Below are positions 12,325 through 51,375 of a stretch of DNA of 64,000 bases, in pieces. The position numbers were made by a program, and so were the translations under genes. The notes below the pieces were generated by a model. That model saw nothing but the letters and a program-made list of their open reading frames with translations, had not been told where the DNA came from and searched no databases. Each line of letters begins with the position of its first letter. Positions within the stretch are counted from its first letter, which is position 1. The stretch is from Lingula anatina (taxonomy: Eukaryota; Animalia; Brachiopoda): contig CM120644.1 in the NCBI GenBank assembly GCA_051362555.1, forward strand, positions 23,954,534-24,018,533, given 5' to 3'.

Positions 12325-13311
12325 TTATATTCCAATATTTAGAGACACTTGAATCCTTTTTGACAAACTATCTTTTATATATCCGTCTTTCGCTTTATCA
12401 GAAATCCAACGTCCATGTTTTTTAAACAAACGGTCTTTTACTCCAAAATTTGCTGCCGCTGTAGCTCCTCCCGCACGCATACTATGTAAACCAAACTTTT
12501 GTCTGTCAAATCCTAATATTTCTAGCTTTTGTAAAATAACTTCTCTAATTCTTGTATACGACATTTTTCCGTTTTTACGTAAAATGTGCTTTTTGGATTT
12601 CTTTAAATAACTAACTGGTCTAAATATAAAATTATCTGAATGTTCTTCAATGTTAGCTGCTTCCAAATATCTTTGTAAAAAAGCATATGGACATGTAGAT
12701 TTCCCAGTTTTAGCAATCAAAACCGTAGATCCGTCCCTGTAAATGTCAGTTTTACTTTTTTCTATAAATATCTCAAAATATTGTTCTGTAAAAGAAATAT
12801 CCGATCTTTTAATATTGCATACCTCGCTATATCTCAAAAAAACCTGCAAATGATATAAGGCATATACAAACATCTCGTAAATCTGCTAAACTAGCATTTG
12901 TATTAGCGAAATGTTAATCATCATTTCTAACATTTTCGGAGTAACTATTTCCTTTTTTACTGTTTTCTTGCGTGACGTTCTCTTTGACGCTTCAACAATA
13001 TTATTTATCACAGGATTATCACACGGATTTGGATTTATACCTGCTATTTCATGTGTCCATTTTAAACCATATTTAACGTCTTGAATCGTTCCTGGTTTAC
13101 ACGAATGCTGTATCAAACTCAACATGTAAAGTGCAATGTGATGCGTTTGAGCTGGAAAAACTTTTACTTCTTCAAAATTACTCGCCCATTTTTTCCATCT
13201 CTGAAATACGGATGAGTACTTGCGTACAGTATTTTCTGCTCTTGAATGTTCCAAAACCTGTGGTAAATCTGCAGCCAAACTCTTTAGTGTTGTGTCCTGT
13301 ACCTCTCTCAT
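12325..13311 (-). CDS. Tyrosine recombinase of the retrotransposon (frameshift near 12880-12920)
   Basis: N-terminal SAM-like part (HSRAENTVRKYSSVFQRWKKW) in 12886-13311. Catalytic part 12325-12873 has R (FLRYSE), K (KSKTD), HxxR (HSMRAGGAT), HGRW and Y (DGYI). Confidence 0.9.
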
Positions 13312-13654
13312 CTTTGTCCAAATCCCTGTTCTGAAAATCTGTAATAGAAAATGTCCTTTCGCATCAATACCACAAATGCAATTTCTATGCTACTTGTCTT
13401 TAATCTTTCTCTCTGATCTTTATTTATTTCATTATGTCAACTTCACTATTCAACATTCACCTTACAATTCCTCTTTTATATGACATATTTTCATTCTATA
13501 ATTTGCATTTTTTTTTTAAACTTCAACCTGCAAACATGTAACAAGTTTTTCTTTTAACCATTACCATGTCATTACTTTTTATAATTTATCAATATGTATT
13601 AATTTTACATGTAAAACTGAATTTATATCCCATTTATCTTTTCAAATCCAATTT

Positions 13655-14240
13655 TGATTCCTATTAAATCTCATCTTGATTCATTTCTAATCACATCTCG
13701 ATTTATATCCAATCACATCTTGATTCATATTCATATCGAACCACACCTCGGTTCATATCAAACCACATCTTGGTTTCATCAAATGACATCTCAATTTATA
13801 TCTAACCACATTTCGATTCTCATCGTACCACATCTCTATTTGTATCAAACCAAATTTCTGTTCGCATCGAACCAAATTTCTGTTCGCATCGAACCACATA
13901 TCTGTTCGCATCGAACCAAATCTCTGTTCGCATCGAACCACACCTCTGTTCGCATCGAACCAAATTTCTGTTCGCATCGAACCACACCTCTGTTCGCATC
14001 GAACCAAATTTCTGTTCGCATCGAACCACATATCTGTTCGCATCGAACCACATATCTGTTCGCATCGAACCACATCTCTGTTCGCATCGAACCATACCTC
14101 TGTTCGCATCGAACCAAATTTCTGTTCGCATCGAACCACATATCTGTTCGCATCGAACCATATCTCTGTTGGCATCAAATCAAATCTGTTCACATCAAAC
14201 CATATCTCGGTTCATATCGAATCACATCTCGATTCAATTA
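13655..14240. repeat. 22-bp tandem array inside the retrotransposon
   Basis: 14 exact copies of TCTGTTCGCATCGAACCA at a strict 22-bp period (13857-14160) with 4 variable nt per unit, plus degenerate flanking copies. Confidence 0.95.
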
Positions 14241-14427
14241 TCCAACATATCCATCTCTATCTTATTTTTGTTTCTTCATAAATGAATATACTACATAAAA
14301 CCTTGTGTAACGAATGTCATGATCCATTATAAATCCTTCAAATCACTTCTAGATTTTATCATGTTCCATTGCATTTTATAATTTTCAACCTTTCACCTAC
14401 TTTAAATCTAATCTTGATCTAACCTTT

Positions 14428-16640
14428 TTATTCAGAACAATCTATCCTTATTGCCAGAATTTGATGCTTGAAGTTTTTTGATCCTATATAAGAATTTTTG
14501 TTTTTCCCTTGTTTGCAAATATCACATCCGTTCTTAAACTTTATTATATCTTTAATATACCATTTCCATTTTGAATTTTCATCTTGTAACAATGGCCAAA
14601 ATGTTGCCGATTTCCAGTCTGGTACTACCAAAGTACCCTTTGCTTTGCAACATAGTAAATGATTTATAACTTTTGGCACTAATGCTACTGGAGGTACTAA
14701 CCAATTATTTTCGTTTGACCAATCCTGTAAAAATGCATCAACCGCCTCTGTATTTGGATTCCAAAATTTTGAATTAAAACGAGTTACTTTTGTATTTTCA
14801 TAATTAGCAAATCTATCTATTGTATACGATCCCCATTTTTTATTCATAAAATTAAAGAAATTTTCCGTGACTTCCCAATCATCTGTGTCTATAATTTTAC
14901 TTATAAAATCTGCTTTTGCATTTTGTGTCCTTGGAATCCATTTTATTTGCAAAATAATATCATTTTCTACACAAAAATTGAAAATATTTAATGCCAATGT
15001 TTGCAAATGCACCTTCATCGATCCAGTCTGTACTATTCTAACAACATTTTGATTATCTGTAAACCATCCGATTTTTCGATTTTAATAAATTTCGTAAATG
15101 ACTGTAATGAAATAAATAGCGCCTTTAATTCCCTCCATGTTGAGCTCTGTTTTTTTCTCACTATCAGACCACATTTTGTGACAAATCTCAGAATTGCATC
15201 TAATCAAATATCCTCCGCATGCATGTTCGCTTGCATCTGAAAACCCCAGTATTTTTGGTACATCTTCCACAAACATGACTCTGCGATTTAGTCTGTCAAT
15301 GTTCGACAACCAAAATTTTAATTCATTTCGCAAATCTGACTTGTCCTTCAAATCCTCGATACCATCCCAATTTCTCCTGTCATTTATGACCTGATGCATA
15401 TTTCTAGTCATCAGTCTCGTTACATCTCCGAACACTATATATAAAGATATAATTTTTCCCGTAATTCTAGCTAAACTTCTAGCAGATGTGTTTGATATAT
15501 TTTCCATTATTTCCATTATATCAATTTTTAAATCTGCCACTCTTTTATCAATTATTGAAAGAATCCCTTTTTTCAAATCCCATTGTAAGCCCAACCAGTT
15601 TAATGTTTGTGTTGGTTTCCACATACTTTTGACTTCGTTTACTACGAAACCAGATTTCAATAAATCATGTCTGATCAAATTCGCAAACTTTCGCAAGTCT
15701 CAAAATTTCCGCTAAATCCCAAACCATCATCTAGGTACATAACAATTGGTATATGTTTTGATCTCCAATGTTTTACTAAACATCTCAAAACTTTCGTGAA
15801 TATGTAACCTGACGAAATTCCAAAAGGGAGCACTGTATAAACATAATATTTAATTTGACCATTCATACGCCAAGAAAACCCCAAAAAATCTTGTTGTGAT
15901 TCCTTAATATCTATGTGATGATAACCATCTTTCAAATCAAACTGAAACATATACCCTCCCAATTTAACATATTGTAGAGCCTCGTTTGCGTCTTCAAATT
16001 TTACTTTCTCTTTCCAAATGTATGGATTCACATGTCTTAAATCAAGTACTAAACGTTTCTTTTTGCCGTTAGATGTAACCGTTAATGGATTTACCACCTT
16101 TGGAATTTCCTTAACTTCTCGAATTCTGCCAGATTTTAATAAATCTTTAATGGTATTGATAACAAATTCTGTGTTTTCAAGCGATGATTTGTTATTCTTG
16201 ATAAATGAATTTGGTGGTGTCTCAATAAATGGAATAACATATCCATTTTTTAATACGTCTAAAATATATTTATTAGCCTGTATGCTTTCCCAGAATTGAT
16301 AGTTTCTCTTAAGTCTTCCTTTAACATTTACATTTTGATGATAATCTAACAACCCATCTGAATTTCTCAAATTATTATCTATCATATACTTATCTTTCAT
16401 TTTTGATTTGCTCATCTTGCTTTTATTTGTTTTGTTGCCACCCGCTGTATGTAGCTTCGCTTCCTCTGAAGTTCTGTCCGTATGTTCTTTCTCGTGGATG
16501 CACTGTACTCTGTGCTTGGTCTTTGTATGGACAGCTTTCCCTCCAATGGCCATATTGTCCACAGGCGAAGCACTGGTCGTTTGGGTTTGGGAATCTTTTT
16601 CTTCGAAAAAGAAAGCTTCCTCGATCAGATATACCTGCAA
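14428..16640 (-). CDS. pol: reverse transcriptase, RNase H and N6-adenine methyltransferase-like domain (two frameshifts)
   Basis: RT motifs KKRLVLDLRHVN, FDLKDGYHH, LPFG, YLDDG (15675-16640); RNase H FSDAS (15082-15696) and KWIPRTQNAKAD; IDRFA...DAF..DW...NWLVPP...GTLVVPDW (14428-15018), typical of the DIRS/PAT MT-like domain. Confidence 0.9.
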
Positions 16641-17277
16641 AATTGACTGATGCAGAATAATTCTTTTTATTGTAATTAAACTCGTTTTTGTTACGCCTGT
16701 TTTGATTTCGTATTCGCATTTTTCTACTGGCTCTCATTTGTGCAGACCGTATTTTCTTTTTATCATCACTATCTTCTGCTAGGTCATCTGATTCGTATTC
16801 TTTTACTGCTTGCCAACCTGCTTCTGACTTGTCTGCTATTCTTATAAGTTTATTTCTCTTTTGTAAAATGTCAATGCCTTCCTTTAGTGCCTTACGAGCC
16901 TCTTTTACATGTCCGTCCTTAATCAACATATCAGCTTTCTGCATATTTTCGATTACTTCAGTATTTATTTCGAACTGCTTTTGATTTCCCGCAAATTTTA
17001 ATTTTTTCTGTACTGTCTTGGCTTTTTTGTTCTGACTTTGACTTTCTTCGACTAGCTCCCTTTTCAGTGATTTAAACTTTTTGTCCATATAAGACTTGAA
17101 CACAGAAAATGTGTCCGTCATTTGTCCAGCTGAGCTGTTATCATTTACATCACCTTTCTCATTGAAAGTTCCTTCATTGCCCTCTTTTTTATCTTCTACT
17201 GCCAAATTTAAAAATTCTCTGCTCTCACTCTCGGTATCTTCACTCTCCGAGGTTGACTCCCTTCTTCTCTTCGACAT
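16423..17277 (-). CDS. gag-like protein with CCHC zinc knuckle
   Basis: 284-aa ORF with RNKLIRIADKSEAGWQAVKEYESDDLAEDSDD block and CFACGQYGHWRESC knuckle; overlaps the pol 5' end. Confidence 0.88.
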   Translation of the reverse strand: MSKRRRESTSESEDTESESREFLNLAVEDKKEGNEGTFNEKGDVNDNSSAGQMTDTFSVFKSYMDKKFKSLKRELVEESQSQNKKAKTVQKKLKFAGNQKQFEINTEVIENMQKADMLIKDGHVKEARKALKEGIDILQKRNKLIRIADKSEAGWQAVKEYESDDLAEDSDDKKKIRSAQMRASRKMRIRNQNRRNKNEFNYNKKNYSASVNFAGISDRGSFLFRRKRFPNPNDQCFACGQYGHWRESCPYKDQAQSTVHPRERTYGQNFRGSEATYSGWQQNK

Positions 17278-17323
17278 ACCAGCGATTTACTTGGACCTGA
17301 CGCAGCAAGCTGAAAACAGCCTC

Positions 17324-26595: not shown

Positions 26596-27013
26596 ATGGG
26601 TCTCTTGCGTGCTGTGTATGGTGGTGATACTGGCGAGGTGAAGCGACTGCTGCGTGATGGGAATTGTGATGTAAACAAAAAGTATATGGTACGTACTGTT
26701 TCTGTATTTCACTACATTGTAGATTGTGTCTGTCGATCATAAGGATGCATTCATAAATACATCTTTGCTATAAAAAAACATATTCAGGTTCTATAAATAA
26801 CTATATGTTCTACCTCTAGGCTTCGTTGTCGATTCTTTTCACAAGACACGCAATAGATCATTTTTATAATGGGGCCTGGCTTCCTGTCTCAAATGTAAAA
26901 TAGGTTGGAGACTGGCATAGATTTAATTTTAGGGTGAAGATCTTTCACAGTTCTCTATAGTAGTAGCCTTACATAGAAATCGCACAATTTTCTAGTAGTA
27001 GTCTAGGTGTTCC

Positions 27014-30000: not shown

Positions 30001-33000
30001 TATGATGTATTAGAACCGGGGATAGACATTTAACTTATTTCATTTCATCGTTTTTGAAGACAGTTGCCAGTTAGAAGAAATGGTCTATTTTTTGTTTTAT
30101 TTATTTAGGCTACTAGTACTTGAGAAACATATTGCAATACATGCACAACATGCGCTATAGATATCAAATAGACAAATAAAATGTGAGGAAAGATGACATG
30201 ATATGATATCATAATGCTGGTCATTTGTTGTTACCAGTGGGACAGAACACTATTACATGTGTCAGTAGGTAACAGACAGGAAGACATCGTGAGACTTCTC
30301 TTGGAGCATGGAGCTGATCCTAATATCACGGATGAGGTTTGTGACACATACATGTACTATTGTATAAATAAATTACCGTGGACTTTGTCGGTTGGTTTGA
30401 TAGACATCAGGAGGGTATACATGCACTTCCACTGTTTTGTCATAAACTATCCATGAGTTTGTTTAATTATGTACTTTTTATCTGGTTATAATAAGTGAAT
30501 ACAATGTAAAGAAAGAGAACATGGGACTGGTGTTACACGTAAACAGTTAGGTGCAAGTTAATCCATTTTCTTTCCTTACATATATGTACAATATATGAAT
30601 GATATGTGAAGAAAGACAACATCGGATGTTATCATTATGGAGATTATTTATTGTTACCAGTGGGGCAGAACTCCATTACATGAGGCAGCATTGTTCGGCC
30701 ATGAAGACATCGTGAAGCTTCTCCTGGAGTATGGAGCTGTTTATTTTATCATATAATTAACATTTAAAAACAATATGAAAAGTAAGCCAAAAGTAATACC
30801 TAATATCACTAATCAGGCTTGTGGCACGTACATATACTGTTATATAAATAAATTACCGTGGGCTTTGTCGACTAGTTGGATAGACATAAGGAGGGTATAC
30901 ATGTACTTCCATTATTTTCTCATAAACTTTTGTTTAATTTGTTTGTTTTATTATTTACTTTTTATCTGGTTATAATGAGTGAAAAGGTATGTAAAGAAAG
31001 AAAACATGGGACTGGTGTTACACGTAAACAGTTAGGTGCAAATGAAACCTTTTCCTTTCCTTGCATTAATAAAATGTATTATCTTTACTTGCACATTATG
31101 ATATTTCTTTTGCCATTAGATTATTTGTCAACATTCGCCCTGTAAGCATTTGACTGCTGATATAGATGAGCACTTTTTTTTAAACCAAAACGTTAGTTAA
31201 TCCAACACATGATTTAAATAAATGAATAAAATGTGAAGAAATACAACATGAGATGATATCATTATGCCGATCATTTTTTTGTTACCAGAATGGCTGTGCT
31301 CCATTACATGGGGCAGCGTATAAAGGGCATGAAGACATCGTGAAGCTTCTCCTGGAGCATGGAGCTGATCCTAATATCACGAATAAGGTAAGTGACATAT
31401 AATGTTATATAAACAAAGTACCCTGGAGATAGTTGTTTGGTTTGATACATTTAAAGTTTGTATACTCCAACTATTTCATTGCAAAGAATTGATAAATTTT
31501 GCTCTTATTATTGTTTGGTAACAATAAGTTAATACAATGTAAATAATGAAAACATGAGACAGGACATCACATGCAAATATTGAAGTGGCTCTTTATACAC
31601 GCACTGTATGATTTCTCCTTCTTTAGATTGTTTGCTCACGTTGGCAAAGGAAGCGTTTCAGTGTTGAATATAAACTTGTATTATTTCAACTGAGTGTTAC
31701 CTTTATCAGCACACATAGAATATATGAATGAAATGTGAAGAAAGACAACTTCGGATATTATCATTATAGTAGTTATTTATTGTTACCAGTGGGGCAGAAC
31801 TCCATTACATGAGGCAGCATCGTGCTGCCATGAAGACATCGTGAAGCTTCTCCTGGAGCATGGAGCTGATCCTAATAACACGGATAAGGTTTGTGGACAC
31901 ATAATACTATATACACAAAATGCCCTTAGTTGGTTGGTAACATACATGTACACTGGATTTTAGTGAATAGATGATTCATTTAAACAATGTTTAGAATAAT
32001 TACTTAAATTTATTTTTTTTATCATGTAATTAACATTTAAAAACAATATGAAAAGTAAGCCTAAAGTAATAACTGATATCACGAATCAGGTCTGTGGCAG
32101 TACATGTACTATTGCATAGATTAACTACCGTGGACTTTGTCGGCTGGTTTGATATACACAAGGAGGGTATACATGTACTACCACTATTTTGTCAATGATC
32201 GATGATTCCTTTCCCAATCATTGGGTTATTTGTTTGCAGATACGTTTGTCCTTTGTAGATGTAAGCATACTGTTGTTTTCTTGCAAATGTTAATTCTACA
32301 GCACTCATGTAAAAAAAAATTACAATATGTCAAATCTCAAAATCGAAGCTATGTAAATGATGCAACTGGATATTTATTGTCTTAACTTGATATTGTAGGA
32401 TAAAGAAACAGCATATGACAAGGCTGTAAAAAAGAGCCATGAACACGTTAAGATAGTGCTGCATAGATATGCCTTGCCACCAATACAGGTTAGTACTGTC
32501 AAATGATGTAATAGTTCTTCATTTGTAAAGTAATCAGGAAAAAGCCATAGGCCCCCTAATGTGCTTCCTTTTTTATCTTTATTTTCCGTTTTTGTTTCCC
32601 TTTTAATTTTCTCTTTTATTATTTTTTCTATGGGTCAACATGCTCAGTCAAGCTCTAGAGCGTCAAGATCAATGTTATTTTTCCAGGCCCATCTTCTCCG
32701 CGAGATGATTATGGCGATAAGTGACCACGTGTCTCTCAAAGATGTCCGCATGCTGGCACGTGCACAGCTGGGAATCCCAGACGCCAAGCTGGACAACATA
32801 GAGTATGAGTACCAACGCGATGCTCAGGAGCAATCCTTCCAGATTTTGTGGCTGTGGAAAGTAAGGACGGCTGGAGCTACAGTCCATAACCTGTTCCAGG
32901 CTCTGAAGGACCATCAGTTGAACGCATGCCTGGGTTCGTAGTATTTAACAGTTCTGATATTTTTAATACACTTGGGCCGTTTATGTATTTATTCTACTAA

Positions 33001-33451
33001 ATATTTTAAGAAGAAAGAGCCTGTCAGTTGGGTTGATTATACTTATCAATCGTGTTTCATTTGTTTTTATATTTCGAAAAAACCTTGATCGAAGCTTATT
33101 TATTCAACAAAACTGTTTTGCTTTGTTTTAATTATAGACAAAGTCAGAAATCAATATTCCTCATTGTTGAATGAAATATGGAGCAAGCCAGAGGACGAGT
33201 TCCAAAAGTTTTCCTCCTCCCTCCAACGCACTCAGTCAAGCACAGATGACGTCACGTTGTCCAACATGACGGAGATGAACCTGAAATGCTACGTATCCGA
33301 AGACTTGGAATCTTTGTATGTTCCACTTGAGAGCTTCAACGCCAATGCCAAGGTGGATGACAACGACAGCAACAAAGCCGTGGTCAAGTATCGCTTAGCT
33401 GGGAAGGGCGTCTGCCGGAATGCCGATACATTCGTTAAGATGACTGAGTAA
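26596..33451 (+). CDS. Ankyrin-repeat and death-domain protein (multi-exon)
   Basis: Exons with AG/GT and continuous frame: 26596-26688, 30238-30336, 31289-31387, 31790-31888, 32399-32488, 32687-32933 (death-domain-like, LGIPDAKLDNIEYEY..EQSFQILWLWK..ATVHNLFQAL) and 33138-33451. Broken cassette at 30661-30756. Confidence 0.85.
27824..28841. mobile_element. PIF/Harbinger-like non-autonomous element in intron 1
   Basis: Imperfect ~35-bp TIRs (ctcttacaacc(a/c)gtcgtgcg(c/t)gctt) flanked by TTA/TAA; CpG-rich non-coding interior. Confidence 0.65.
30661..30815 (+). pseudogene. Disrupted ankyrin exon cassette
   Basis: Starts WGRTPLHEAALFGHEDIVKLLLEYGA, then switches at ~30740 to sequence matching ~32012-32090. 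In-frame TAA at 30754-30756; donor position reads GC. Confidence 0.75.
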
Positions 33452-35082: not shown

Positions 35083-35122
<40 letters not shown>

Positions 35123-37765
35123 AATCGTGACACAGCGGATAAAAGCACCAAACTTTGCATGAGGGTACCTTTTGACATACTAAATCAAATTAGAGCCGTA
35201 GCCCACGGAAAAAATTTACCGTTTGGCCAAAAAATCCAAAATGGCCGCCAATTTGTGAAATTTTGTAGAAATATATACATATCTATGTTTATTTTTATCA
35301 AATTAACCGTTTTCCACATCGTTATTACCCATTTTATGCATATGTGTCAGATACCAAACTATTAGTGTCCTTGGACTTAATGAAAAATCCAAGATGGCCG
35401 CCGTATGGCATAGGAATACTAGAACATGTACAAGGGTTTTTCAACTAACTAATGCCAACTAGGAAGATGCATTGCCAACTATCTAATTAATTTTGTTTCC
35501 TATTACACAAATAATATATTGTGGTGAGTAGCTAACCTTAATTCACAGGCAATTCGAGAAAAATCCAAGATGGCCCCCATATCAAAGGAATACTAGTATA
35601 CACATAGGGCTGCATCTGCCATGGAGATATAATATTAATTGATAAATTAGGTTTGTTTCTGAGTATTTCCCACATCTTTTTAATTCACATAATATATATG
35701 TGACGAGAATGTTATGTGTATCCTTTTTGAAAACAAAACAAATATAAATGCCTCCCATATTAGCCAATAGAAGGTGGGGTTCAGTTAAAACCTGCAGGGG
35801 TAGGCTTACAAATAAAATGAAGCTGAATTCAGTTGTTATTCTGTTTTTTAGTATTATTGTCCCATGATACATATCTGTTAGGTAATTAATGTCCAAATTT
35901 TATCATTTTGGGGAAATCCAAGATGGCCTTCTTTTCCCCATAGGAAAACTGGTGCATTAGATTTTATGGCACTTCTAAGGCAAATTAGGGTAATCATGAT
36001 ATTTTTTCAAAATGCTTAAGGGTATACACTTGTTACCCACCAGATAGATATCTAAAAGTCCAAGAAGAATGTGGGAAATACAGAGAAACAAAATTCATTT
36101 TATATTGGACCCAATGTCTCTCTGGCAGTAGTTGACTGTTCTATTCATATTGTGAATTGCAGCAATCTTGAATTTTCTCAAATACGCAAGATGCACAGTT
36201 GCTACACACCAGATTTATAAAGAGTAAGGTTAATAAGGATGTCAACGTGTTTAAACATCAAACGGCTTTATTTCCTGTTGGAATAAATGTCTGAACTGTT
36301 CTATTAATTGACAGCTATGTGAATTTGAGTGATATATTCCTATGACAACTGGCAGCTATCTTGGGTTTTCACTGAATAATACTCAAGGATACATACTCTT
36401 TCAAAACACACAGAGTCTTTCATAAGAATAAATAGGATATGAAAAACAGTAAAAAAACGACCCAACGTTAACTACATTTAAATCGTACTCAGTGTATTTC
36501 TAGCATTATTTGATTATGTGTTCGAATATTCTAATGACAAAAGGCATACATCTTGAATTTTTTCAGAATACCCAAAAATGCACACATGCTACAGACCAGG
36601 TATACATCAAAGGGCTAATAATAAATGGAACGAAAAACATGAATTGTTTTTAAAACAAACCCATGGAAATGTAATTGTATAATGAACCATATGCCTCTCT
36701 AGCAGCAATTGAAACCCACCCATTAGTATTCCTATATGTAAAATTGTAGGTATCCTTTTCTTAGAATATCTAAGGATGCATACTATTTACCCACCAGATA
36801 TATATCATAAGACTAATAAGGATGGGCAAAACTTGATAAGCAAACACAAATTCACCCTGGTAGTAGATGAAAAGCCATGAATGTGCAGTGGCAATTCCAG
36901 TAGTATTCCTATGGCCAGTGACGGCCATATTGGGTTTTCTCAAGATGATCAAATATGCACATTTATTACCTGCTAGATATGTATCACAGTGTAATAATAA
37001 TGTGTAAAAAAATAAACTGAATTTGATAGTGAATTAGCTGGTATTAGTTCCAACCCGGCCTTTGTAATACTAGGAGTATTCCTATTACATATGACGGCCA
37101 TCTTGGATTTTCTCACAATGCCCAAGAATACTGTTAGTTACTCACCACATACATATTGTGTAGGTAGAAAGGATGTGGAAAACACTCAGAAACCAGCTTA
37201 ATTTGATAGTGAAAAATTTATCTTACCAGTTGCCATTAGTTCAATCCCCGTATTATACTAGAATTCCTGTGGCACGTGGCAGCTATCTTGGATTTTCCAA
37301 AATGCACAAGAACACTTCGTAGTTACTCACCACAAACATATTATGTGGGTAACAAAGATCTAAGAAGCATACTTAATTTGATAGTGGACAACGTATCGTT
37401 CTAGCTGGTAATAGTTGTGCACTGGTATTCCTATGGCTGTTAATTTCTGTGGCAAATGACAGCCATCTTGGATTTTTTCAAAAAGTCAAAGGGAACTTGT
37501 TTGCTATTTGACATATATGAATAAAATGGGTAATAAGGGTGTGGAAAACTGACAAAATAATTTATTTGATAAAGATCAACATAGGTACATACATATTTCT
37601 AAAGAATTCAATAAATTGGCGGCCATTTTGGATGTTTTGGCCAAACGGTAATTTTTTCCATGGGCTACGGCTCTAATTTAATTTAGAATGTCAAAAGGTA
37701 CCCACATACAAAATTTGGTGCTTTTATCCGCCGTGTCACGATTTTTTCCTTAAGCCACCGGACTA
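35066..37765. mobile_element. 2.7-kb non-autonomous DNA element with long TIRs (foldback-like)
   Basis: ~35120-35400 is the reverse complement of ~37460-37745; further nested inverted blocks and many aaatccaagatggc motifs; possible ATT duplication. Confidence 0.8.
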
Positions 37766-38243: not shown

Positions 38244-40398
38244 CTAGCCATTGCTTATTCCACTGACTAAATATATTGTATCTTCCATAAAAGGAAACCT
38301 CATGTCCCTGATGTTATCTAGTTCTGGTAAAGTTAGTAATTTAAGCAAAGAATCTGGGAGCTTTAAACTTTTTATATGACTTTCAGTAACTTTCCCCTCC
38401 CCGAGAGTTCTGCGTATGGCTCGAACACAGCAGTGTAACAGAGAAGGAAAACAGGCTAAATTGTCTCGATAAAACTGGGCGATTCTTGAGTCTAAATCCA
38501 CAGGAAGTTCAAGATGAGTGGCAGAGATACTGTTAACAAGATTATACTTGAGTCCCACTGAGTTCAGCATTCTCAGAGCGTCTTTAATGTCCCCTTCTGT
38601 CACAGCCAGTAACAATATGATCTGTACCACGGAATGTAGGTCTGCCTCGTACCTTATAACACGAGACGCAGCGTAAAATTTTCTCCAGATTTTTTCCACC
38701 ACCATCTCTTCAAACCAATCCCTTACTACATTCACAGCTCCAAGCTGTAATAATGTCTTAATCAGTTCCACAACATTTCTGTTTATGATATATCGTGATT
38801 TTCTCAACAATTTACACCAGTCAATCTTGCAAGGTATTTCCACCCCAGCATCTATCAGTATTTTAAACAAAGTTGTTAGATTGGAGGAACTGGACTTGAG
38901 AACTATCTCCAGAGGAGTCAAGGCAATCTTTCCTCTCTCCCTCACCCCAAACAAACTGTATTTGTACTTCAGGAGAAGTCTCACTGTGTCTGGATCACCT
39001 AGAAATAAAATAAAAAGATGTAGATACAGAATTACTTGGATATTATATTAAACAACAATAATTATTATTATCGGTCAGGGGTAAGAGTGCTTACTTTTCT
39101 ACATTGCCAACAAATATGACATTATGAATGCTTGCTGCGATTTTTGTTTGATTTTTATAGAGCTTTATGTACAAGGTTCGGCTTTTCATGCTGGCCATTG
39201 CAGATACCAAGAAACGGGACTAGTTTCTGATGGAGACTCACTGAAAAGTTTTAAAGAACCGCCATGACGTTATGTTTTTCAGCCAGTTGTCATACAACTG
39301 TATAGATATTGTGTATGGCCTGTGCATTTTTATTGCATTGGATTGCATTGGACCAAAACTTAAAAGCTAAGAGATAATACAACAACTACAACACAATATA
39401 TAAATTCACATTTCATGTTGTCAAGTGTGTGTCTGTATTTTAGAATGTGAGTTTCATAAACACAGTCACAGAATAAATGAGCATGTGCATTCTAACTGGT
39501 AAACAACTGTGTTACCTGTCCTCAGGGCTGAAATTATTGCAGTGTCTTCTGTTTCTGTGTTCTCCCTGGCACCAAGCTCCAAAAGTCTTTCTATCAATTC
39601 AGGAGAACAATCTGAAATAACATCATTACATAAAATGAAAAGCAATAAATATATATGGTAACCTAAAGGTAGGGCAGCTCTATTGCCAAAATGAAATGCT
39701 CTCAATCTGCGAAATGGTTTCACAACTTTTAACTGAGGCATGGGAACGATGGAAACCATCAAAAGTCACAGAATACCAACAAACTTTTTAAATTTGTGAC
39801 CAGTGTTAGAAATTAAGACTGGACCGTCTGCCCGGGGCTGACAACTTTCAGAACGGGCTGAGAAGTTTTCCCACCTGGCAGACATTCGAGCCAGCTACTT
39901 TTTAAGATGGCTGGACTTTCGGTCCAGCAACTTATTTTCCTAAGAGGCAAACACTGTTTGTGACAGTTTACAGCTCACATCTGTGCCACTATTCTAAATA
40001 GAAATAAAGTGACTTACGCAAGTGGCATTGAATCACATGTGGCTTATACCTATTTAATACAGATATGTATAGATATTAATTCAAACAATTATATTACACC
40101 ATCATTTTAGAAGGTGATGATTAAGCAGGCAGTACACTACATGTTTATTTAAAAAATTCAAAGTCATGTGAACCAGTCACAAGTGTTTTGAAGTCAGAAG
40201 GCAACCAGTCAAGTTGAGTTATCCATAAAATACTTACTAGCATTAATAGCTCTGGTCAACGGTGACGTGGACACCCCTTGAATACAATTCACCAAAGCTC
40301 CGGCCTCCAGGAGACACCTTGCAATTTCCTCATGTCGCCACCAGAGGGCAGTCAGAAGGGGTGTAGTAGGATTCTGGCTCTGGTGGACCACCTGGTAG

Positions 40399-40440
<42 letters not shown>

Positions 40441-43400
40441 TAGTTTACATCTAAAATTTTATTATCATCATGAGCTATAAATGGAAATATTACTCTTAAG
40501 GGCATAAGGGCACCAGATGAGATAGAATCCACTAAAGTTAATCTGCTGATTCTAGAATATTTACTTAAATTTGAAATAAAAAAAATTATGTTGGGTTGTT
40601 GAAAATGAGCTATATTAACCTATATGCAGCTAATACGCACTAACTCTGCAAGTACTCTCGCTGAATACAATCAGATTAAAAGAACAGCATGCCTCCTTTG
40701 ATATCCTGACATTGAGTAGAATACGTAACAGATTAACCGTTATTTATATGGGTTTGTTGGTTACCTGGTTACCTTTAAGATCTTGACATTGAGTAGAATA
40801 TGTAACAGATTAACTGTTGTTTATATGGGTTTGTTGGTTACCTGGTTACCTTTAAGATCCTGACATTGAGTAGAATATGTAACAGATTAACTGTTGTTTA
40901 TATGGGTTTGTTGGTTACCTGGTTACCTTTAAGATCCTGACATTGAGTAGAATACGTAACAGATTAACTGTTGTTTATGTGGGTTTGTTGGTTACCTTTA
41001 ACATCCTGACATTGAGTAGAATACGTAACAGATTAACTGTTGTTTATATGGGTTTGTTGGTTACCTGGTTACCTTTAAGATCCTGACATTGAGTAGAATA
41101 TGTAACAGATTAACTGTTGTTTATATGGGTTTGTTGGTTACCTGGTTACCTTTAAGATCCTGACATTGAGTAGAATACGTAACAGATTAACTGTTGTTTA
41201 TGTGGGTTTGTTGGTTACCTTTAACATCCTGACATTGAGTAGAATACGTAACAGATTAACTGTTGTTTATGTGGGTTTGTTGGTTACCTTTAACATCCTG
41301 ACATTGAGTAGAATACGTAACAGATTAACTGTTGTTTATATGGGTTTGTTGGTTACCTTTAAGATCCTGACATTGAGTAGAATACGTAACAGATTAACTG
41401 TTGTTTATATGGGTTTGTTGGTTACCTTTAAGATCCTGACATTGAGTAGAATACGTAACAGATTAACTGTTGTTTATATGGGTTTGTTGGTTACCTTTAA
41501 GATCCTGACATTGAGTAGAATACGTAACAGATTAACTGTTGTTTATATGGGTTTGTTGGTTACCTGGTTACCTTTAAGATCCTGACATTGAGTAGAATAC
41601 GTAACAGATTAACTGTTGTTTATGTGGGTTTGTTGGTTACCTTTAAGATCCTGACATTGAGTAGAATACGTAACAGATTAACTGTTGTTTATATGGGTTT
41701 GTTGGTTACCTTTAAGATCCTGACATTGAGTAGAATACGTAACAGATTAACTGTTGTTTATATGGGTTTGTTGGTTACCTTTAAGATCCTGACATTGAGT
41801 AGAATACGTAACAGATTAACTGTTGTTTATATGGGTTTGTTGGTTACCTGGTTACCTTTAAGATCCTGACATTGAGTAGAATACGTAACAGATTAACTGT
41901 TGTTTATGTGGGTTTGTTGGTTACCTTTAAGATCCTGACATTGAGTAGAATACGTAACAGATTAACTGTTGTTTATATGGGTTTGTTGGTTACCTGGTTA
42001 CCTTTAAGATCCTGACATTGAGTAGAATACGTAACAGATTAACTGTTGTTTATATGGGTTTGTTGGTTACCTGGTTACCTTTAAGATCCTGACATTGAGT
42101 AGAATACGTAACAGATTAACTGTTGTTTATATGGGTTTGTTGGTTACCTGGTTACCTTTAAGATCCTGACATTGAGTAGAATACGTAACAGATTAACTGT
42201 TGTTTATATGGGTTTGTTGGTTACCTGGTTACCTTTAAGATCCTGACATTGAGTAGAATACGTAACAGATTAACTGTTGTTTATATGGGTTTGTTGGTTA
42301 CCTGGTTACCTTTAAGATCCTGACATTGAGTAGAATACGTAACAGATTAACTGTTGTTTATATGGGTTTGTTGGTTACCTTTAAGATCCTGACATTGAGT
42401 AGAATACGTAACAGATTAACTGTTGTTTATATGGGTTTGTTGGTTACCTGGTTACCTTTAAGATCCTGACATTGAGTAGAATACGTAACAGATTAACTGT
42501 TGTTTATATGGGTTTGTTGGTTACCTGGTTACCTTTAAGATCCTGACATTGAGTAGAATACGTAACAGATTAACTGTTGTTTATATGGGTTTGTTGGTTA
42601 CCTTTAAGATCCTGACATTGAGTAGAATACGTAACAGATTAACTGTTGTTTATATGGGTTTGTTGGTTACCTGGTTACTTTTAAGATCCTGACATTGAGT
42701 AGAATACGTAACAGATTAACTGTTGTTTATATGGGTTTGTTGGTTACCTTTAAGATCCTGACATTGAGTAGAATACGTAACAGATTAACTGTTGTTTATA
42801 TGGGTTTGTTGGTTACCTGGTTACCTTTAAGATCTTGACATTGAGAAGAATACGTAACAGATTAACTGTTGTTTATATGGGTTTGTTGGTTACCTTTAAC
42901 ATCCTGACATTGAGTAGAATACGTAACAGATTAACTGTTGTTTATATGGGTTTGTTGGTTACCTGGTTACTTTTAAGATCCTGACATTGAGTAGAATACG
43001 TAACAGATTAACTGTTGTTTATATGGGTTTGTTGGTTACCTTTAAGATCCTGACATTGAGTAGAATACGTAACAGATTAACTGTTATTTATATGGGTTTG
43101 TTGGTTACCTGGTTACCTTTAAGATCCTGACATTGAGTAGAATACGTAACAGATAAACTGTTGTTTATGCAGGTTTGTTGGTTACCTGGTTACCTTTAAG
43201 ATCCTGACATTGAGTAGAATACGTAACAGATAAACTGTTGTTTATATGGGTTTGTTGGTTACCTGGTTACCTTTAAGATCCTGACATTGAGTAGAATACG
43301 TAACAGATTAACTGTTGTTTATATGGGTTTGTTGGTTACCTTTAAGATCCTGACATTGAGTAGAATACGTAACAGATTAACTGTTGTTTATATGTTTTTG

Positions 43401-46391
43401 TTGGTTACCTTTAAGATCCTGACATTGAATAGCATACGTAACAGATTAACTGTTGTTTATATGTTTTTGTTGGTTACCTTTAAGATCCTGACATTGAGTA
43501 GAATACGTAACAGATTAACTGTTATTTATATGGGTTTGTTGGTTACCTGGTTACCTTTAAGATCCTGACATTGAGTAGAATACGTAACAGATAAACTGTT
43601 GTTTATGCAGGTTTGTTGGTTACCTGGTTACCTTTAAGATCCTGACATTGAGTAGAATACGTAACAGATAAACTGTTGTTTATATGGGTTTGTTGGTTAC
43701 CTTTAAGATCCTGACATTGAGTAGAATACGTTACAGATTAACTGTTGTTTATATGGGTTTGTTGGTTACCTGGTTACCTTTAAGATCCTGACATTGAGTA
43801 GAATACGTAACAGATAAACTGTTGTTTATATGGGTTTGTTGGTTACCTGGTTACCTTTAAGATCCTGACATTGAGAAGAATACGTAACAGATTAACTGTT
43901 GTTTATATGGGTTTGTTGGTTACCTGGTTACCTTTAAGATCTTGACATTGAGAAGAATACGTAACAGATTAACTGTTGTTTATATGGGTTTGTTGGTTAC
44001 CTGGTTACCTTTAATATCCTGACATTGAATAGAATACGTAACAGATTAACTGTTGTTTATGTGGGTTTGTTGGTTACCTTTAACATCCTGACATTGAGTA
44101 GAATACGTAACAGATTAACTGTTGTTTATATGGGTTTGTTGGTTACCTTTAAGATCCTGACATTGAGTAGAATACGTAACAGATAAACTGTTGTTTATAT
44201 GGGTTTGTTGGTTACCTTTAAGATCCTGACATTGAGTAGAATACGTAACAGATAAACTGTTGTTTATATGGGTTTGTTGGTTACCTGGTTACTTTTAAGA
44301 TCTTGACATTGAGTAGAATACGTAACAGATTAACTGTTGTTTATATGGGTTTGTTGGTTACCTTTAAGATCATGACATTGAGTAGAATACGTAACAGATT
44401 AACTGTTATTTATATGGGTTTGTTGGTTACCTTTAAGATCCTGACATTGAGTAGAATACGTAACAGATAAACTGTTGTTTATATGGGTTTGTTGGTTACC
44501 TGGTTACTTTTAAGATCATGACATTGAGTAGAATACGTAACAGATTAACTGTTGTTTATATGGGTTTGTTGGTTACCTTTAAGATCCTGACATTGAGTAG
44601 AATACGTAACAGATTAACTGTTGTTTATATGGGTTTGTTGGTTACCTGGTTACCTTTAAGATCCTGACATTGAGTAGAATACGTAACAGATTAACTGTTG
44701 TTTATATGGGTTTGTTGGTTACCTTTAAGATCCTGACATTGAGTAGAATACGTAACAGATTAACTGTTGTTTATATGGGTTTGTTGGTTACCTGGTTACC
44801 TTTAAGATCCTGACATTGAGTAGAATACGTAACAGATAAACTGTTGTTTATATGGGTTTGTTGGTTACCTTTAAGATCCTGACATTGAGTAGAATACGTA
44901 ACAGATTAACTGTTGTTTATATGGGTTTGTTGGTTACCTGGTTACCTTTAAGATCCTGACATTGAGTAGAATACGTAACAGATAAACTGTTGTTTATATG
45001 GGTTTGTTGGTTACCTGGTTACCTTTAAGATCTTGACATTGAGTAGAATACGTAACAGATTAACTGTTGTTTATATGGGTTTGTTGGTTACCTTTAAGAT
45101 CATGACATTGAGTAGAATACGTAACAGATTAACTGTTATTTATATGGGTTTGTTGGTTACCTTTAAGATCCTGACATTGAGTAGAATACGTACAGATAAA
45201 CTGTTGTTTATATGGGTTTGTTGGTTACCTGGTTACCTTTAAGATCCTGACATTGAGTAGAATACGTAACAGATTAACTGTTGTTTATATGGGTTTGTTG
45301 GTTACCTGGTTACTTTTAAGATCCTGACATTGAGTAGAATACGTAACAGATTAACTGTTGTTTATATGGGTTTGTTGGTTACCTTTAAGATCCTGACATT
45401 GAGTAGAATACGTAACAGATTAACTGTTGTTTATATGGGTTTGTTGGTTACCTTTAAGATCCTGACATTGAGTAGAATACGTAACAGATTAACTGTTGTT
45501 TATATGGGTTTGTTGGTTACCTGGTTACCTTTAAGATCCTGACATTGAGTAGAATACGTAACAGATTAACTGTTGTTTATATGGGTTTGTTGGTTACCTT
45601 TAACATCCTGACATTGAGTAGAATACGTAACAGATTAACTGTTGTTTATATGGGTTTGTTGGTTACCTGGTTACCTTTAAGATCCTGACATTGAATAGAA
45701 TACGTAACAGATTAACTGTTGTTTATGTGGGTTTGTTGGTTACCTGGTTACCTTTAAGATCCTGACATTGAGTAGAATACGTAACAGATTAACTGTTGTT
45801 TATATGGGTTTGTTGGTTACCTGGTTACCTTTAAGATCCTGACATTGAGTAGAATACGTAACAGATAAACTGTTGTTTATATGGGTTTGTTGGTTACCTG
45901 GTTACCTTTAATATCCTGACATTGAGTAGAATATGTAACAGATTAACTGTTGTTTATATGGGTTTGTTGGTTACCTTTAAGATCCTGACATTGAGAAGAA
46001 TACGTAACAGATTAACTGTTGTTTATATGGGTTTGTTGGTTACCTGGTTACCTTTAAGATCCTGACATTGAGTAGAATATGTAACAGATTAACTGTTGTT
46101 TATGCAGGTTTGTTGGTTACCTGGTTGGGATCAGCACCAGCAGCTAGCAGAACTCTAGCCATCATCAGGTTGGAGCGAATACTTGCATTATAAAGGGGAC
46201 TTCGACCATCAACACTGGTGGAGTTTACTGCACAACCAGCCTATAGGAGATTGATTTAATAATAAATATTATATAATATCATTTCACATGTTTTTTTTTT
46301 CTTTCATGTTACTGATGGCCTGGTCGGTCTACTGTTACTTAAAAAAAAGATTAAAGAATTAAGAAACAAACAAACAAACAAACAAATCATC

Positions 46392-46422
<31 letters not shown>

Positions 46423-46954
46423 GAAAAAAGAAAAGATGTGTGGAATGAGACATAATATAAAACTTTGCATTCTGTTGATTCTCTTTTGATTAATTAATTA
46501 ATCATTATTATTGATTAGTACTATTTATTTTATTTTCTGATTTTTTTATATTTCTTTTTTGCTTGTTTAAATTCATTTATTATCAAACTACATGAATAAC
46601 TTTAATCTAACTGAAAATACTCTGTATGCATTTGAAAATATCCCCAAGTCATATTTTCCTTGTCTACATATTCTGCAAAGCTAATCAGCTAATTAAGAAT
46701 GGCATTAATCATTGAATCTGAGTACAGGGACGAGATGAGATTTTTGCTTTTTGAGTGTAGCAAAAAAAAAAAAAAAAAAATTTTGTCCCTTAGTGAGCAG
46801 AAGACCCCACCCACCCCAAATAAGGATAATCCGATCAAATCAACTATAATGGCAAAGTCTATTGATAAATTACCCGTAAAAGCAGCTGCACCTGCTCTAA
46901 GGTTCCAAACTTGGTGGCCTTATGGATATCCCAGTCTTGCCATTGTAAATCCAT
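38244..46954 (-). CDS. Ankyrin repeat and SOCS-box (ASB-like) protein
   Basis: Exons 46954-46874, 46240-46121, 40391-40238, 39611-39516 and 38998-38244 join in frame with GT/AG. Ankyrin motifs (GRSPLYNA, TTPLLTAL, TSPLTRAI); C-terminal SOCS box PSLLHCCVRAIRRTL..IKSLKLPDSLLKLL. Confidence 0.88.
40701..46126. repeat. Intronic satellite of 69/77-bp units, roughly 70-75 copies
   Basis: Unit gatcctgacattgagtagaatacgtaacagattaactgttgtttatatgggtttgttggttacct[ggttacct]ttaa; highly homogeneous; ends at the exon boundary 46121. Confidence 0.98.
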
Positions 46955-47642
46955 CCTCTTGCCTTGGAGGCCTACTGTAGCTCTTCAATGTCAACATCAA
47001 CTGGAGAATCAAACTATATACAGGTATATAGAAAGTGAATTCAAAGCCAAAGGGGGATGGGTCTTTAATTATCTGAAATATTGTATTTTTATTGTGAAAC
47101 CTTGCTACATGTATTTAAGTTCTAATCTTTAGAAAGAAAAAAAATGAAAAAAAAAAAAACTGCAGGATTGATATTAATTAGTCTGTTTATTATATATGCT
47201 CAAAGGTTTTTAACTTTTTACCCCTGACAGATTTTACTATTAGTAGTATGGCTATTTTATTACATTAGTATAACTTAATAATACCGAGCCTTAACATTTC
47301 CAAAGAGAGTTATAAAACTGTTCCCAAATCATTTATACAATTATACATGTACTACCATTTTTGAAGTTATTTTTCAATGAAAATTGAAGTGGAACGAGTC
47401 TGTGGAGGACTACCACGAGGACTACAACCCCAGCTTTATCCTACTAGCGAGTTAAATGAAAAAAATATTTATACAACCTTCACTACCTCTAGGGCACTGT
47501 ATATTTCTTGTAAATTAGTTTGAGTGAGTCTCTCTCTCTCTCTCTCTCTCTCTCTACCTACCTACTTGCCACGGGTTGTGCCTGTCTTGCAACCTTGACC
47601 TCCAAAAAGGAGGAAAACTATACATCGATACCAATTTGCTAC

Positions 47643-48562
47643 ATGGACGGCACGACGGTGTTAAAACACCACATAAAGCATGAATTGTGCTCTACACGCC
47701 CTGCCTATCGAGAAGGGAGGGACCTTAAGGCTGTGAAGGTAAGAAATGGATTTAGATTTATGAGTAAACCACTTAACTGTGGCAATGCGTAACTTTTTAA
47801 AACTAAGTTTGCCCACAATTGGATCTCGATTTGTCCGAAGACGTTCAGGGGGTGGAAACGCGCTACTTATATGATTAAGACGAGCCTAGCCGTCAGTACC
47901 GGATGTTGTTTTGTGACCTTGAGGAGCAATTAGGTTCGGTCGTTGCGGCACGCATGAACAGTAGTTGAACTACCACACCTGGGTCTTTTGTTTTTGACAA
48001 CTGTTCACTCGTCATCGAGGCGCTTGTTCAAGACTACAGGCTGATATCTACTAGTACTACCAGTGGCTTCATTAGTAACGTTCCCACAATACTTAGTTTT
48101 CTGTCTGTGCGTACATACCCTGAAAAAAGCCAGCCTCGCTGACGAGGACAATGGACGTTTCTCACCCCTCTCTAGGATTACCCCTGACGTTTTCAAACTC
48201 TTATCTGCGTTCTGTATTATTACTAGTCCTAGCCTTTACAACTAGTATATACAACCAATTATCTGTCTCTGACACCCTGAAAACTGCTTGGAACAGCTAG
48301 TGAATATGTATGAGTAGGAAATTTGATGAACTCGATGAACTCGAGAATATGTATGAATAGGAAATTTGATGCAGTGAGTAAAAATAAATAAATGAATGAA
48401 TAAATAATGATAATAATAATAATAATACAAATTAAGAATTTTCTACTTAATATGGAATTTTAATCTGTGAAATATTTACTATAAAACTTCTTATGTAGTC
48501 TACTGCCAAGGTGCACAGTAAAAATGGAATCCGCCATGTAAAAAGAAATTATAATAAGAACG

Positions 48563-48602
<40 letters not shown>

Positions 48603-51375
48603 CACCATTCCCAGGTATACAGTGTAGCTCAGGAGTCCCAGTACCTCCTAGTTCAGGGAGTACCAGCTGTGGGGGCCTCTGCAGAGCTGATCAAACTGTT
48701 TGCTTTATATGGGGAAATCTTGGAGTACAGAATTCTGGACCAGTATCCCACAGATGACAACTACACAGAAGTTTACTGGATAAAATATAAGAAGATACAG
48801 TCTGCAAGGTGGGTCTGGGTGACTGGAATTTTTTTCTTTAATTCTGTATTAATTTACTCATAGATTATGTAAGCACAGCCAATGCGTTTTATGGTATATC
48901 TAGATTTTTCTGAATTGTCAGATGTTGCTTTGATAATTTGTAATAAATATACTATTTTTGGTTAAGTTACTAGTAGATTTATTTACTTGGCATACTGGAC
49001 ATTTTTGATAAAACTAAGACCATAGTTTTAAACTTCCATATATAACTGAAGTAACTGTCTTGGATATAAGGTATCAAACATTATGCCTAAAAATATTGAA
49101 TTTAAAATGGATTTAATTGATATAACTTTAGAGATCTTTAAATCAACTTATAGAACAAATGTTGGTTCATGGCAGTATTGGCTATATAGCCTTGTAGAAT
49201 TTTATACAGTGTACTGTGGACGGGGCAATAGTCCGAAGGTTCAATAGTCCGAAGGTTCATTGGTCCGAATTTTCACTACAGAACCTTCGGACCAATGAAC
49301 CCTTGATTTATAAACCGATGAAAATGTTACCGTTTTTTGGACCAATGAACCCTCAGACCAGTGAACCTTCGGACTATCAAGATGCCCCCCTGTGGACAGC
49401 AGTTGTTAACACTTGTTGTTAACCTTCACTTTCCAGGTTTGCCAAGAAGAAGCTAGACGACTATGCCTTCTTTGGAGGTGCACTTCACATCTGTTATGCC
49501 CCAGAATACGAGTCTGTCCAGGAAACCAAGGACAAGCTGCGGGAACGTAGAAGGGAGGTAGCAGTGAGGCTCAGAAAACTTAGTAAGTGGTACCAAGACT
49601 AAAAATGATAGAAGTTTAGTATGTGGCTGTAATAACTCAAGATTCTGAAGTGATGATAACTTGGCTAAAATTTGCTAAGTGGTTTTGAGGCTTAATAATT
49701 CAGTCATTGGCAGAGAGGCCAAAAGTCTCAATTGCTATAAATTGAAAATTAATAGAATAACTATTTATGTATTAATAAAACATAACTTATACCAGGCCAG
49801 CGCTTCGAACAATAGGATAATTGCACTTGTATTTCACATACAGGTTTACCTGTATTTTTATAGGCTTCGATGTGTTCATTCTGTTGTTTGATTGAAGTAA
49901 TTTGAAATTTAGGTGTGGAAGTCTAAGAATGAATTTCTTTAGTTCTAGATATATGGAATTTTTAGTGCTGCATGGCGTATTTTATTTATTTCTTAATCTA
50001 TGTGTCATCCTTTTATGTTTACCCAGCATATCTCATTTCAGAAGAGGCAAGTAGTTCCCAGTCTTCATTAGTGTCTGAGACAGCTACAGGAGACAGCTCT
50101 TCCATACTCCAGACCATAGCCACTGATACAGCCCCTGGGTCATCCCAGCCAGGGCTGGACAACACTGGACATCAGCACTGGTCAGATAGTGGACATCAAC
50201 ACATCTCAAGCAGTGGACAGAGGCCAGGGACTGACCACCATCACCATCAACACACAAAGACACAACAGGATCTCCAACATGAAACACGCATGTACAACAC
50301 CCCACCCCCACCACCCCCACCACCCCCTCCTTTCCTCCCACCCCCACCCCTACCTCAGCCACACCCACCCTGGGGACACACCCACCACCACCCTGGGTAT
50401 CACCCCCACCCATTGTATCCCAGCATGCACCCAGAAGGGCGGTATGGGTGGGGGGTTCCAGGACTTCACCCCCAGCCTCAGGGTACACCAGCAGGACCCC
50501 CGGGTCACTTAACCCCTGGGCATCATCCTGTGGTCACTTCCCATGGACATGCTGGTTATAGTACAGGAAGTGACCAACAGGGGGCGTTAGGAGGGACAAA
50601 TCTCAGAAACTGGAATAATGCCATGAAGCAGGATTTGACAGAAAAATTGCATGGTGACAAACAAAGCTCTGTTAATAAAAGTCATAATAATTCTCTGTCA
50701 CGTGATGGACCTACACAACCAGTTGTAGATAGAAACCTGACATCAGGAGACATTGTTGTCAAAAATTTCAAACCCAAGAACCAGACAGCACCAAAGTTTA
50801 TACCTAGACAGGCTTTACAAAAGATTCAAAAACAGAGTGAAACCAAAGAATCCTCAAATGCGGACAGAGATCTCTTAAATGAAGACTTACGGCGGAATGC
50901 ATGTATTCTTGGAGATGTTAAAGGTCCGGCAGTAAAACCTGGAGAAGAGAGGAAGGCGATGGAGGAAGAAGAAAAATCTGTTGATAACACTGTGAAACAA
51001 ATCAGGGACAAAGTGAAAAGTGTAGGTGAAAATAACTGAGATTGTGAACAGAACAAAGATTGTGACAATTTGGAGTTTTGGTTAAGCAGAGCAGAGTTTA
51101 TTATTTTTTGCATTTTTTTTTTTTTTACTTACTTAGATTTGACTAAAGAACTGTTTCAAAAGTCAGTGAAATAATTGTAACAATATTCAGATTTTTGAAT
51201 CAACCAACAGTTCATCAGCTTTTACTTTTTTTTAGTTAAAATGCTAATATAATGTGAAGTATAGAATGTATTAATTATCAGCAGTAACATTGTGGTTTCT
51301 TTCAACTTCCAGTTTTCAACAACTTTGCCGTTACCAATTCCAAAGAAGAAAAGAAAAACTGAATCAGGCAGCTGA
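47643..51375 (+). CDS. RBM48: RNA-binding protein 48 (minor spliceosome factor)
   Basis: Exons 47643-47738, 48615-48808, 49437-49582, 50027 (or 50042)-51021 and 51313-51375. CSTRPAYREGR..AVKVYSV..ESQYLLVQGVPAVG..FALYG..FFGGALHICYAPEYESVQETKDKL matches the RBM48 RRM as I recall it. Confidence 0.92.
49222..49389. mobile_element. 168-bp MITE with 8-bp TSD in an RBM48 intron
   Basis: CTGTGGAC duplicated at 49214-49221 and 49390-49397; internal inverted short repeats gtccgaaggttc/gaaccttcggac. Confidence 0.8.

Follow-up and report, generated by a model that had tools for sequence, protein, structure and literature searches.

Four ankyrin exons of nearly one design lie side by side in the genome of the brachiopod Lingula anatina. 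Do they make up a binding surface that is kept variable by exchange of its units, or are they the repeats of an ordinary ankyrin gene? The window analysed here is the whole stretch of 64,000 nucleotides around them (GenBank assembly GCA_051362555.1, contig CM120644.1, positions 23,954,534 to 24,018,533 of the forward strand). An earlier note, made from the letters of this DNA, had proposed a sensor in which single-repeat exons (“cassettes”) carry a DARPin-like face, are diversified by unequal crossing-over and exon skipping, and are joined to a death domain.

Anatomy and state of the window gene

The gene starts with its N-cap exon, 3.5 kb upstream of the cassettes (Table 1). The four cassettes, W1 to W4, are all above the Pfam Ank cut-off and each is preceded by the same nine bases ending in AG. 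Four exons of the same design do begin at 30238, 30661, 31289 and 31790, as first described, and three of them (W1, W3 and W4) are intact, i.e. 99 nt long, in phase 0-0 and with GT donors; but W2 is broken and its old donor position (30817) now reads GC. The intron ends in front of the cassettes, which had been called near-identical, proved to be related only, being 14-32% different over about 62 nt. Cap-like exons were found on both sides as announced, the N-cap lying outside the stretch to which it had been assigned. The death domain follows the C-cap as expected (Pfam Death, PF00531, E 1.2e-14), and after it comes a further exon of 103 residues plus a stop, for which there was no Pfam match below E 0.09. 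The seven exons other than W2 join into a single open frame of 346 residues, all introns being GT-AG. Further cassettes were sought on both strands of the window; none was found, and no inverted cassette either. Animal ankyrin genes commonly encode one repeat per 99-nt exon, a pattern that the neighbouring ankyrin-SOCS gene does not clearly show.

Table 1. Features of the window, in window coordinates: exons of the cassette gene, then other features.
Feature	Position	Strand	Remarks
N-cap exon	26596..26688	+	first coding exon, 31 codons from ATG, phase 0 donor; 23/31 identity to P0005 N-cap
Cassette W1	30238..30336	+	99-nt phase 0-0 ankyrin exon, degenerate framework; Pfam Ank
Cassette W2	30661..30816	+	broken; 26 intact codons, 3' end replaced, stop at 30754-30756
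Cassette W3	31289..31387	+	intact 99-nt phase 0-0 ankyrin exon; Pfam Ank
Cassette W4	31790..31888	+	intact 99-nt phase 0-0 exon, Cys at conserved Gly15; Pfam Ank
Remnant of a fifth unit	~32013..32194	+	cassette 3' end, donor and following intron, no ankyrin head
C-cap repeat exon	32399..32488	+	90 nt, phase 0-0; 28/30 identical to P0001 and P0002
Death-domain exon	32687..32933	+	FADD-like; Pfam PF00531
Last coding exon	33138..33451	+	~100-residue tail ending in TAA; 102/103 identity to P0001
C2H2 zinc-finger array	1645..3361	-	84-nt period, frameshift-broken
DIRS-type retrotransposon	12325..17286	-	apparently near-complete; gag-like ORF, reverse transcriptase (PF00078), adenine-methyltransferase-like and tyrosine-recombinase-like ORFs
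22-bp tandem array	13735..14230		inside the DIRS-type retrotransposon
2.6-kb element	35122..37744		terminal inverted repeats of 143 nt, repeated motifs inside; likely non-autonomous DNA transposon
Ankyrin-SOCS-box gene	38244..47010	-	convergent with the cassette gene; SOCS box slightly below Pfam cut-off
5.4-kb minisatellite	40695..46126		~74 copies of a 69-77 nt unit; intronic in the ankyrin-SOCS gene
RRM gene and enkurin (PF13864)	47900..55500	+ (RRM), - (enkurin)
79-nt minisatellite	51581..52935		between the RRM gene and enkurin

Two of the other features call for a remark. The 5.4-kb minisatellite starts where the 46240-46121 exon has its donor, and its unit seems to include that donor sequence. 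The RRM gene presumably resembles RBM48; the exon of it that was tested had no Pfam match.

The damage to W2 can be traced to its neighbours. Positions 30587-30739 are 92% identical to 31716-31868, and 30740-30922 are 86% identical to 32013-32194. W2 and its flanks are, by these alignments, a copy of W4 and the remnant unit minus 31869-32012 (144 bases); the array thus bears the scar of a duplication plus a deletion. Of the six donor candidates between 30730 and 30830, a single one keeps the exon open (26 codons): the GT at 30739, which looks weak. An assembly artefact was judged unlikely, as the units are 8-28% different and, in two DNA runs, there are single contigs that come back to the start of the unit, the behaviour expected of a tandem array.

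The framework is changed in W1 (positions 7, 11, 12, 15 and 16, in its first half) and in W4 (position 15), and for this reason part of the cassette diversity in the window copy looks like decay. The window gene lacks a repeat that P0001, P0002 and P0005 all have as their constant second one; intron 1 holds no match to it. The window copy is probably a damaged allele, with even odds that it is a weak or dead one, but if W2 is skipped a short array may still fold. Damaged copies are expected in a frequently recombining array; dead repeat exons are likewise described for brown-algal genes, in passages of PMC3341825.

Copies of the gene and turnover of their cassettes

A search with the death-domain exon matched four L. 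anatina proteins (4 among 51 candidates). The P0001 tail, searched without a profile against 1.84 billion representatives, gave 21 matches, and all six that extend through the last exon are L. anatina records; names were checked for 10 of the 19 new matches, the remaining nine aligning only within the first 146 of the 216 query residues. Nine L. anatina records in all carry the death domain and the tail. Paralogues were counted from protein records and sequencing contigs only, and the RefSeq models (P0001, P0002 etc.) are automatic predictions. On a single cassette 56 and 92 contigs were found in two DNA runs, which means many copies and gives no copy number. With the last exon of the ankyrin-SOCS neighbour as synteny probe no protein relative was found in either length range.

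The last three exons of the window gene (216 residues) are identical to RefSeq P0001 at 213 positions and to P0002 at 206; these two are either alleles or recent paralogues of the window gene. Their cassettes are another matter. The window has three intact cassettes and a broken one, P0001 five, P0002 three and P0005 six. No cassette of P0001 or P0002 is identical to any window cassette, while two of the six in P0005 are identical to each other. W3 shares 31 of 33 residues with the second cassette of P0002, both differences falling at surface positions (5 and 10), and the head of W2 is nearest to the third P0002 cassette, so the W2-like and W3-like units stand in reversed order relative to the window. 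A W1-like head sits last in P0001: this last cassette is the nearest relative of W1 (23/33 identical) and also the closest to W4 taken as a whole (27/33), the head of W4 resembling W2. Since the tails are near-identical while the cassettes differ in number, order and sequence, the cassettes outpace the remainder of the gene by far in all three respects. The gene is not, then, a single-copy one with fixed cassette number and order, which the earlier note had named, along with the lack of a non-synonymous excess at surface positions, as the case against its own proposal: it is multi-copy, and its near-identical copies differ in just these features.

The window, P0001 and P0002 together have 11 full cassettes, and no two of these have the same head. 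All four residue combinations occur in 12 of 66 informative column pairs of these cassettes, some of which recurrent mutation could explain. The W2 scar and the differing number and order of cassettes between copies point strongly to recombination as the mechanism of cassette variation. Germ-line gene conversion and unequal crossing-over, the latter as first suggested, are the likely source of the differences in number, order and surface residues of cassettes between near-identical copies.

Cassette identity is 0.66-0.73 between genes and 0.67-0.82 within genes. Exchange between distant paralogues, which this equality suggested, was not retained: with 74% to P0005 the N-cap shows no less conservation, and constraint explains the equality just as well. 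Identity of the repeats to their own majority residue is 0.90 for P0001 and 0.82, 0.82 and 0.80 for the others; the criterion of 85% over 100 residues for NLR/STAND receptors with variable repeats uses T-REKS, which is another measure.

Further relatives were seen outside this close group. P0006, a distant family member, has a homogenised repeat type of its own (75% between repeats), and P0008, an older paralogue, has divergent repeats (32%). In two subfamilies, then, homogenisation arose or was kept up separately.

Variable positions and possible selection on the ankyrin face

Across W1-W4, codons 1-14 hold 22 variable columns in 42 nt and codons 15-26 only 4 in 36 nt, which confirms the framework as nearly invariant at the DNA level. 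For the finer pattern 17 cassettes were compared: 4 from the window, 5 from P0001, 3 from P0002 and 5 of the 6 from P0005, the 31-residue one being excluded. Positions 13, 14, 10 and 3 are the most variable (6 to 8 residues each), followed by 1, 5, 9, 12, 16 and 26; positions 8, 20, 24, 25, 30 and 33 are invariant. The first helix of the cassette corresponds to positions 6-13 in the single-sequence model of P0001, which folded in its ankyrin part only.

The residues that differ between cassettes had been likened to those randomised in DARPin libraries, which we take to be positions 2, 3, 5, 13, 14 and 33; the DARPin sequences among the PDB matches agree with this list. Mean entropy is 1.65 bits at these six positions versus 0.59 at the other 27 (permutation P 0.003, an optimistic value as the cassettes are related). 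Variation is indeed concentrated there, but the likeness goes only part of the way. Position 33 is the same residue in all 16 full-length cassettes, genomic and RefSeq, unlike in DARPin libraries, and position 10, among the most variable here, is Leu in most DARPin repeats examined among the PDB matches. In the best 12 of 56 junction rows, read by eye, expressed copies show further residue types at position 3 (Tyr, Phe, Asp, Cys, Ser, Trp) and at position 2 (Glu, Val, Trp, Gln, Ile). In ankyrin repeats generally it is the contact positions that vary most.

For W1-W4 the mean pN of seven surface positions (the six of DARPins and position 10, added after looking) is 0.50, versus a pS of 0.15, a framework pN of 0.11 and 0.14-0.32 in the upstream introns. 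With the six positions alone, 3 of 6 pairs have a surface pN above pS and above the divergence of the introns (P 0.026 or less). A non-synonymous excess at the surface is thus present in these three pairs, all of which include W3, but the other three pairs show nothing. Because every significant pair shares W3, the signal is close to one independent observation; gene conversion can moreover lower pS.

Variants among the reads and contigs were also counted, in the best 40 of 109 rows, 27 of them in the exon; the rows are unphased and mix paralogues, and the reference itself is deviant at codons 1, 3 and 4. Rows affecting an amino acid at the six positions number 11 on 15.3 non-synonymous sites, against 8 synonymous rows on 22.4 sites and 8 non-synonymous rows elsewhere on 61.3 framework sites, three of these at position 10. 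The counts fit purifying selection on the frame and an excess of about twofold on the face. Between the cassettes of the closest pairs, 5 of 7 differences lie at surface positions versus 1.5 expected. From such comparisons, diversifying selection on the contact residues is moderately likely.

How far this reaches is less firm. In its boldest form the proposal would make the family a library of DARPin type that arose naturally. Its ankyrin exons would be an interchangeable stock in the germ line in which selection favours difference at the contact residues; they would be swapped within and between genes and joined directly, with no NTPase switch, to a FADD-like death domain. Recognition would then vary from one brachiopod individual to another, perhaps widened by cassette skipping. 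We put this forward as a tentative possibility.

Ordinary repeat turnover is a less likely account of the same facts. The genes would be a young family of ankyrin/death-domain adaptors in which similar exon-intron units recombine, folding holds the framework, the surface drifts and many copies decay, that of the window included. The damaged window copy, odd cassettes in RefSeq relatives, e.g. the 31-residue repeat of P0005, and the dependence of the selection signal on W3 are in line with it, and ankyrin repeats with a death domain are a common pairing (ANKDD1A, in passages of PMC6318269). But drift predicts a surface pN near pS and intron divergence, and the observed one exceeds them, on average by a factor of 2 to 3; the share of surface positions in the differences of the closest pairs is above expectation as well. 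The alternation of variable and invariant codons follows the protein structure and forms no DNA hot spot, and the divergent repeats of the older paralogue P0008 make homogenisation specific to two subfamilies.

Death domain, expression and rival functions

The best solved-structure matches of the death domain are FADD, then RIPK1 and TRADD. A model of the paralogue P0003 (pLDDT 86-94 over residues 21-120) matches the FADD death domain with Z 16.3 and rmsd 1.5 over 98 aligned residues; the domain is predicted to have a six-helix death fold, FADD-like. The tail has motifs conserved across the family. No fold was identified for it, the best Atlas match having an unusably low TM of 0.40 and the alignment model a low confidence there (blocks of 33-80). 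The Pfam scan of P0001, P0002, P0005, P0006 and P0008 found no NTPase or enzyme family, and neither a ROC-COR nor an NB-ARC core; the exons of the window gene leave no room for an NTPase. Without one the NLR-type switch is absent, a point against the sensor reading.

NF-kB p105 and p100 also have ankyrin arrays followed by a death domain. The Lingula proteins could in the same way be decoys or inhibitors, with a variable ankyrin face that blocks foreign or host signalling proteins (IkB-like) and a death domain that acts as dominant-negative brake or anchor. That the proteins have neither NTPase switch nor enzyme domain agrees with such a role, as does the appearance of the p105 and p100 death domains lower in the fold list. 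But with Z 7.9 and 7.5 these are far more distant than FADD, and an inhibitor of a fixed host protein needs no 11 distinct heads in 11 cassettes. An inhibitory function thus seems unlikely.

Four RNA runs (X11, X13, X14 and X17) were mapped on the gene. X17 covers the exons, including the N-cap exon, and X11, X13 and X14 leave almost nothing on them: the depth on the death-domain bin is about 91 in X17 versus 0 (X11), 0.6 (X14) and 0 (X13). X18 also expresses cassettes (679 reads). Among the joints listed for X17, GT-AG joints connect a cassette to the C-cap (27 and 5 reads), the C-cap to the death domain (93 reads) and the death domain to the last exon (50 reads). Cassette-to-cassette joints were seen in the same run; the N-cap-to-W1 joint is absent among the best 15 of its 20 joints. 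Since 1163 of 1308 X17 reads are under 95% alike to the window, they come from other copies and report other alleles or paralogues, not the transcript of the window copy itself. Family members are spliced and expressed in some samples, and strongly sample-dependent.

Two short intronic stretches of the window (33039-33072 and 29387-29720) collect foreign RNA reads in all four runs; they are probably dispersed repeats.

In X17 some joints look as if W2 (8 reads) or W4 (27 reads) had been skipped. They were rejected as evidence of exon skipping: the reads are short and mostly differ from the window, and the W2-skip joints carry other letters at the joint, which assigns them to other alleles or paralogues. 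A Dscam-like repertoire, in which cassette skipping makes many sensors per gene in each animal, is therefore very improbable, for although symmetric phase-0 exons permit skipping, a full-length product of the window copy requires W2 to be skipped or cut short, and splicing of this kind is reported for brown-algal ROCO genes (in passages of PMC11378527), the skip-like joints that seemed to favour it are explained by other copies and the 3 to 6 cassettes per gene give few combinations.

Known systems and the meaning of the family

Internally conserved ankyrin repeats, repeat-number polymorphism and positive selection on the concave face are described for fungal NLRs in passages of PMC4986451; conserved-repeat sensors occur in animals too, where the parts of PMC13449251 that treat them mostly discuss them with an ATPase. 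The fungal ankyrin NLRs (Podospora Pa_3_8560 and Pa_2_8180; passages of both papers) are like the Lingula genes in their near-identical repeats, number polymorphism, variable inner helices and hairpin, and signalling or effector domain. They carry a NACHT or NB-ARC NTPase, whereas none was found in the Lingula family, whose array precedes a FADD-like death domain, whose repeats each have their own exon and whose host is an animal. The nank (NACHT-ankyrin) genes of Tuber melanosporum, as cited in a passage of PMC4986451, are likewise a family of ankyrin sensors that has expanded and owes its diversity to its exons, but these are codon-sized microexons with alternative splicing, and a NACHT domain is present.

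The brown-algal ROCO (LRR) and NB-ARC-TPR genes, in passages of PMC3341825 and PMC11378527, share with Lingula the one repeat per equal-length exon and the dead repeat exons in introns; their duplicates, like the Lingula copies, are nearly identical outside the reshuffled repeat domain (a passage of PMC3341825). The same two sources report diversifying selection and a proposed immune role. The algal genes differ by LRR or TPR repeats (up to 49), a GTPase or NB-ARC core and reported alternative splicing (passages of PMC3341825 and PMC11378527).

Human ANKDD1A, like the Lingula genes, has ankyrin repeats and then one death domain, but it has nine repeats and a host partner, FIH1 (passages of PMC6318269). 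The Lingula tail matched only Lingula proteins, and the ANKDD1 label is absent among the 10 named matches of the P0001-tail search. We know of no homogenised, reshuffled cassettes in ANKDD1A. DARPins, as presented in passages of PMC8683736 and PMC8229355, have the same order of N-cap, self-compatible 33-residue repeats with a fixed framework and a variable turn and helix 1, and C-cap. They are synthetic, whereas the genomic and RefSeq Lingula cassettes fix position 33, vary positions 9 and 10 and are fused to a death domain.

No paper describing the Lingula ankyrin-cassette death-domain family was found among titles and starts of abstracts, mostly from outside the subscription journals; the passages on Lingula or ankyrin in PMC8195603 and PMC11463336 describe other things. 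In their way of working the Lingula genes resemble those of the fungi and algae, yet they are neither NLRs nor ROCOs. The principle is not categorically new because fungi and brown algae have described equivalents. The family is nonetheless more dynamic than an ordinary ankyrin gene.

With its N-cap, shuffled ankyrin cassettes, C-cap, FADD-like death domain and lineage-specific tail, the family is on balance somewhat likely to be a variable intracellular sensor. The ankyrin face would bind a cytoplasmic target; clustering would expose or gather the death domains, and these would recruit a death-domain adaptor (a FADD/RIPK-type partner). By analogy with known death-domain biology, binding of a ligand might in this way lead to death-domain clustering in defence or non-self recognition.

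If the sensor reading is true, the strategy of constant scaffold, variable face and shuffled repeats seen in fungal and algal candidate immune receptors would extend to an animal, and in its simplest form, a binder and a death domain. The cassettes would show which ankyrin positions are varied by evolution (3, 10, 13 and 14 above all), a natural check on the design of DARPin libraries. And the family would be a small case of how an invertebrate may diversify intracellular recognition without adaptive immunity.
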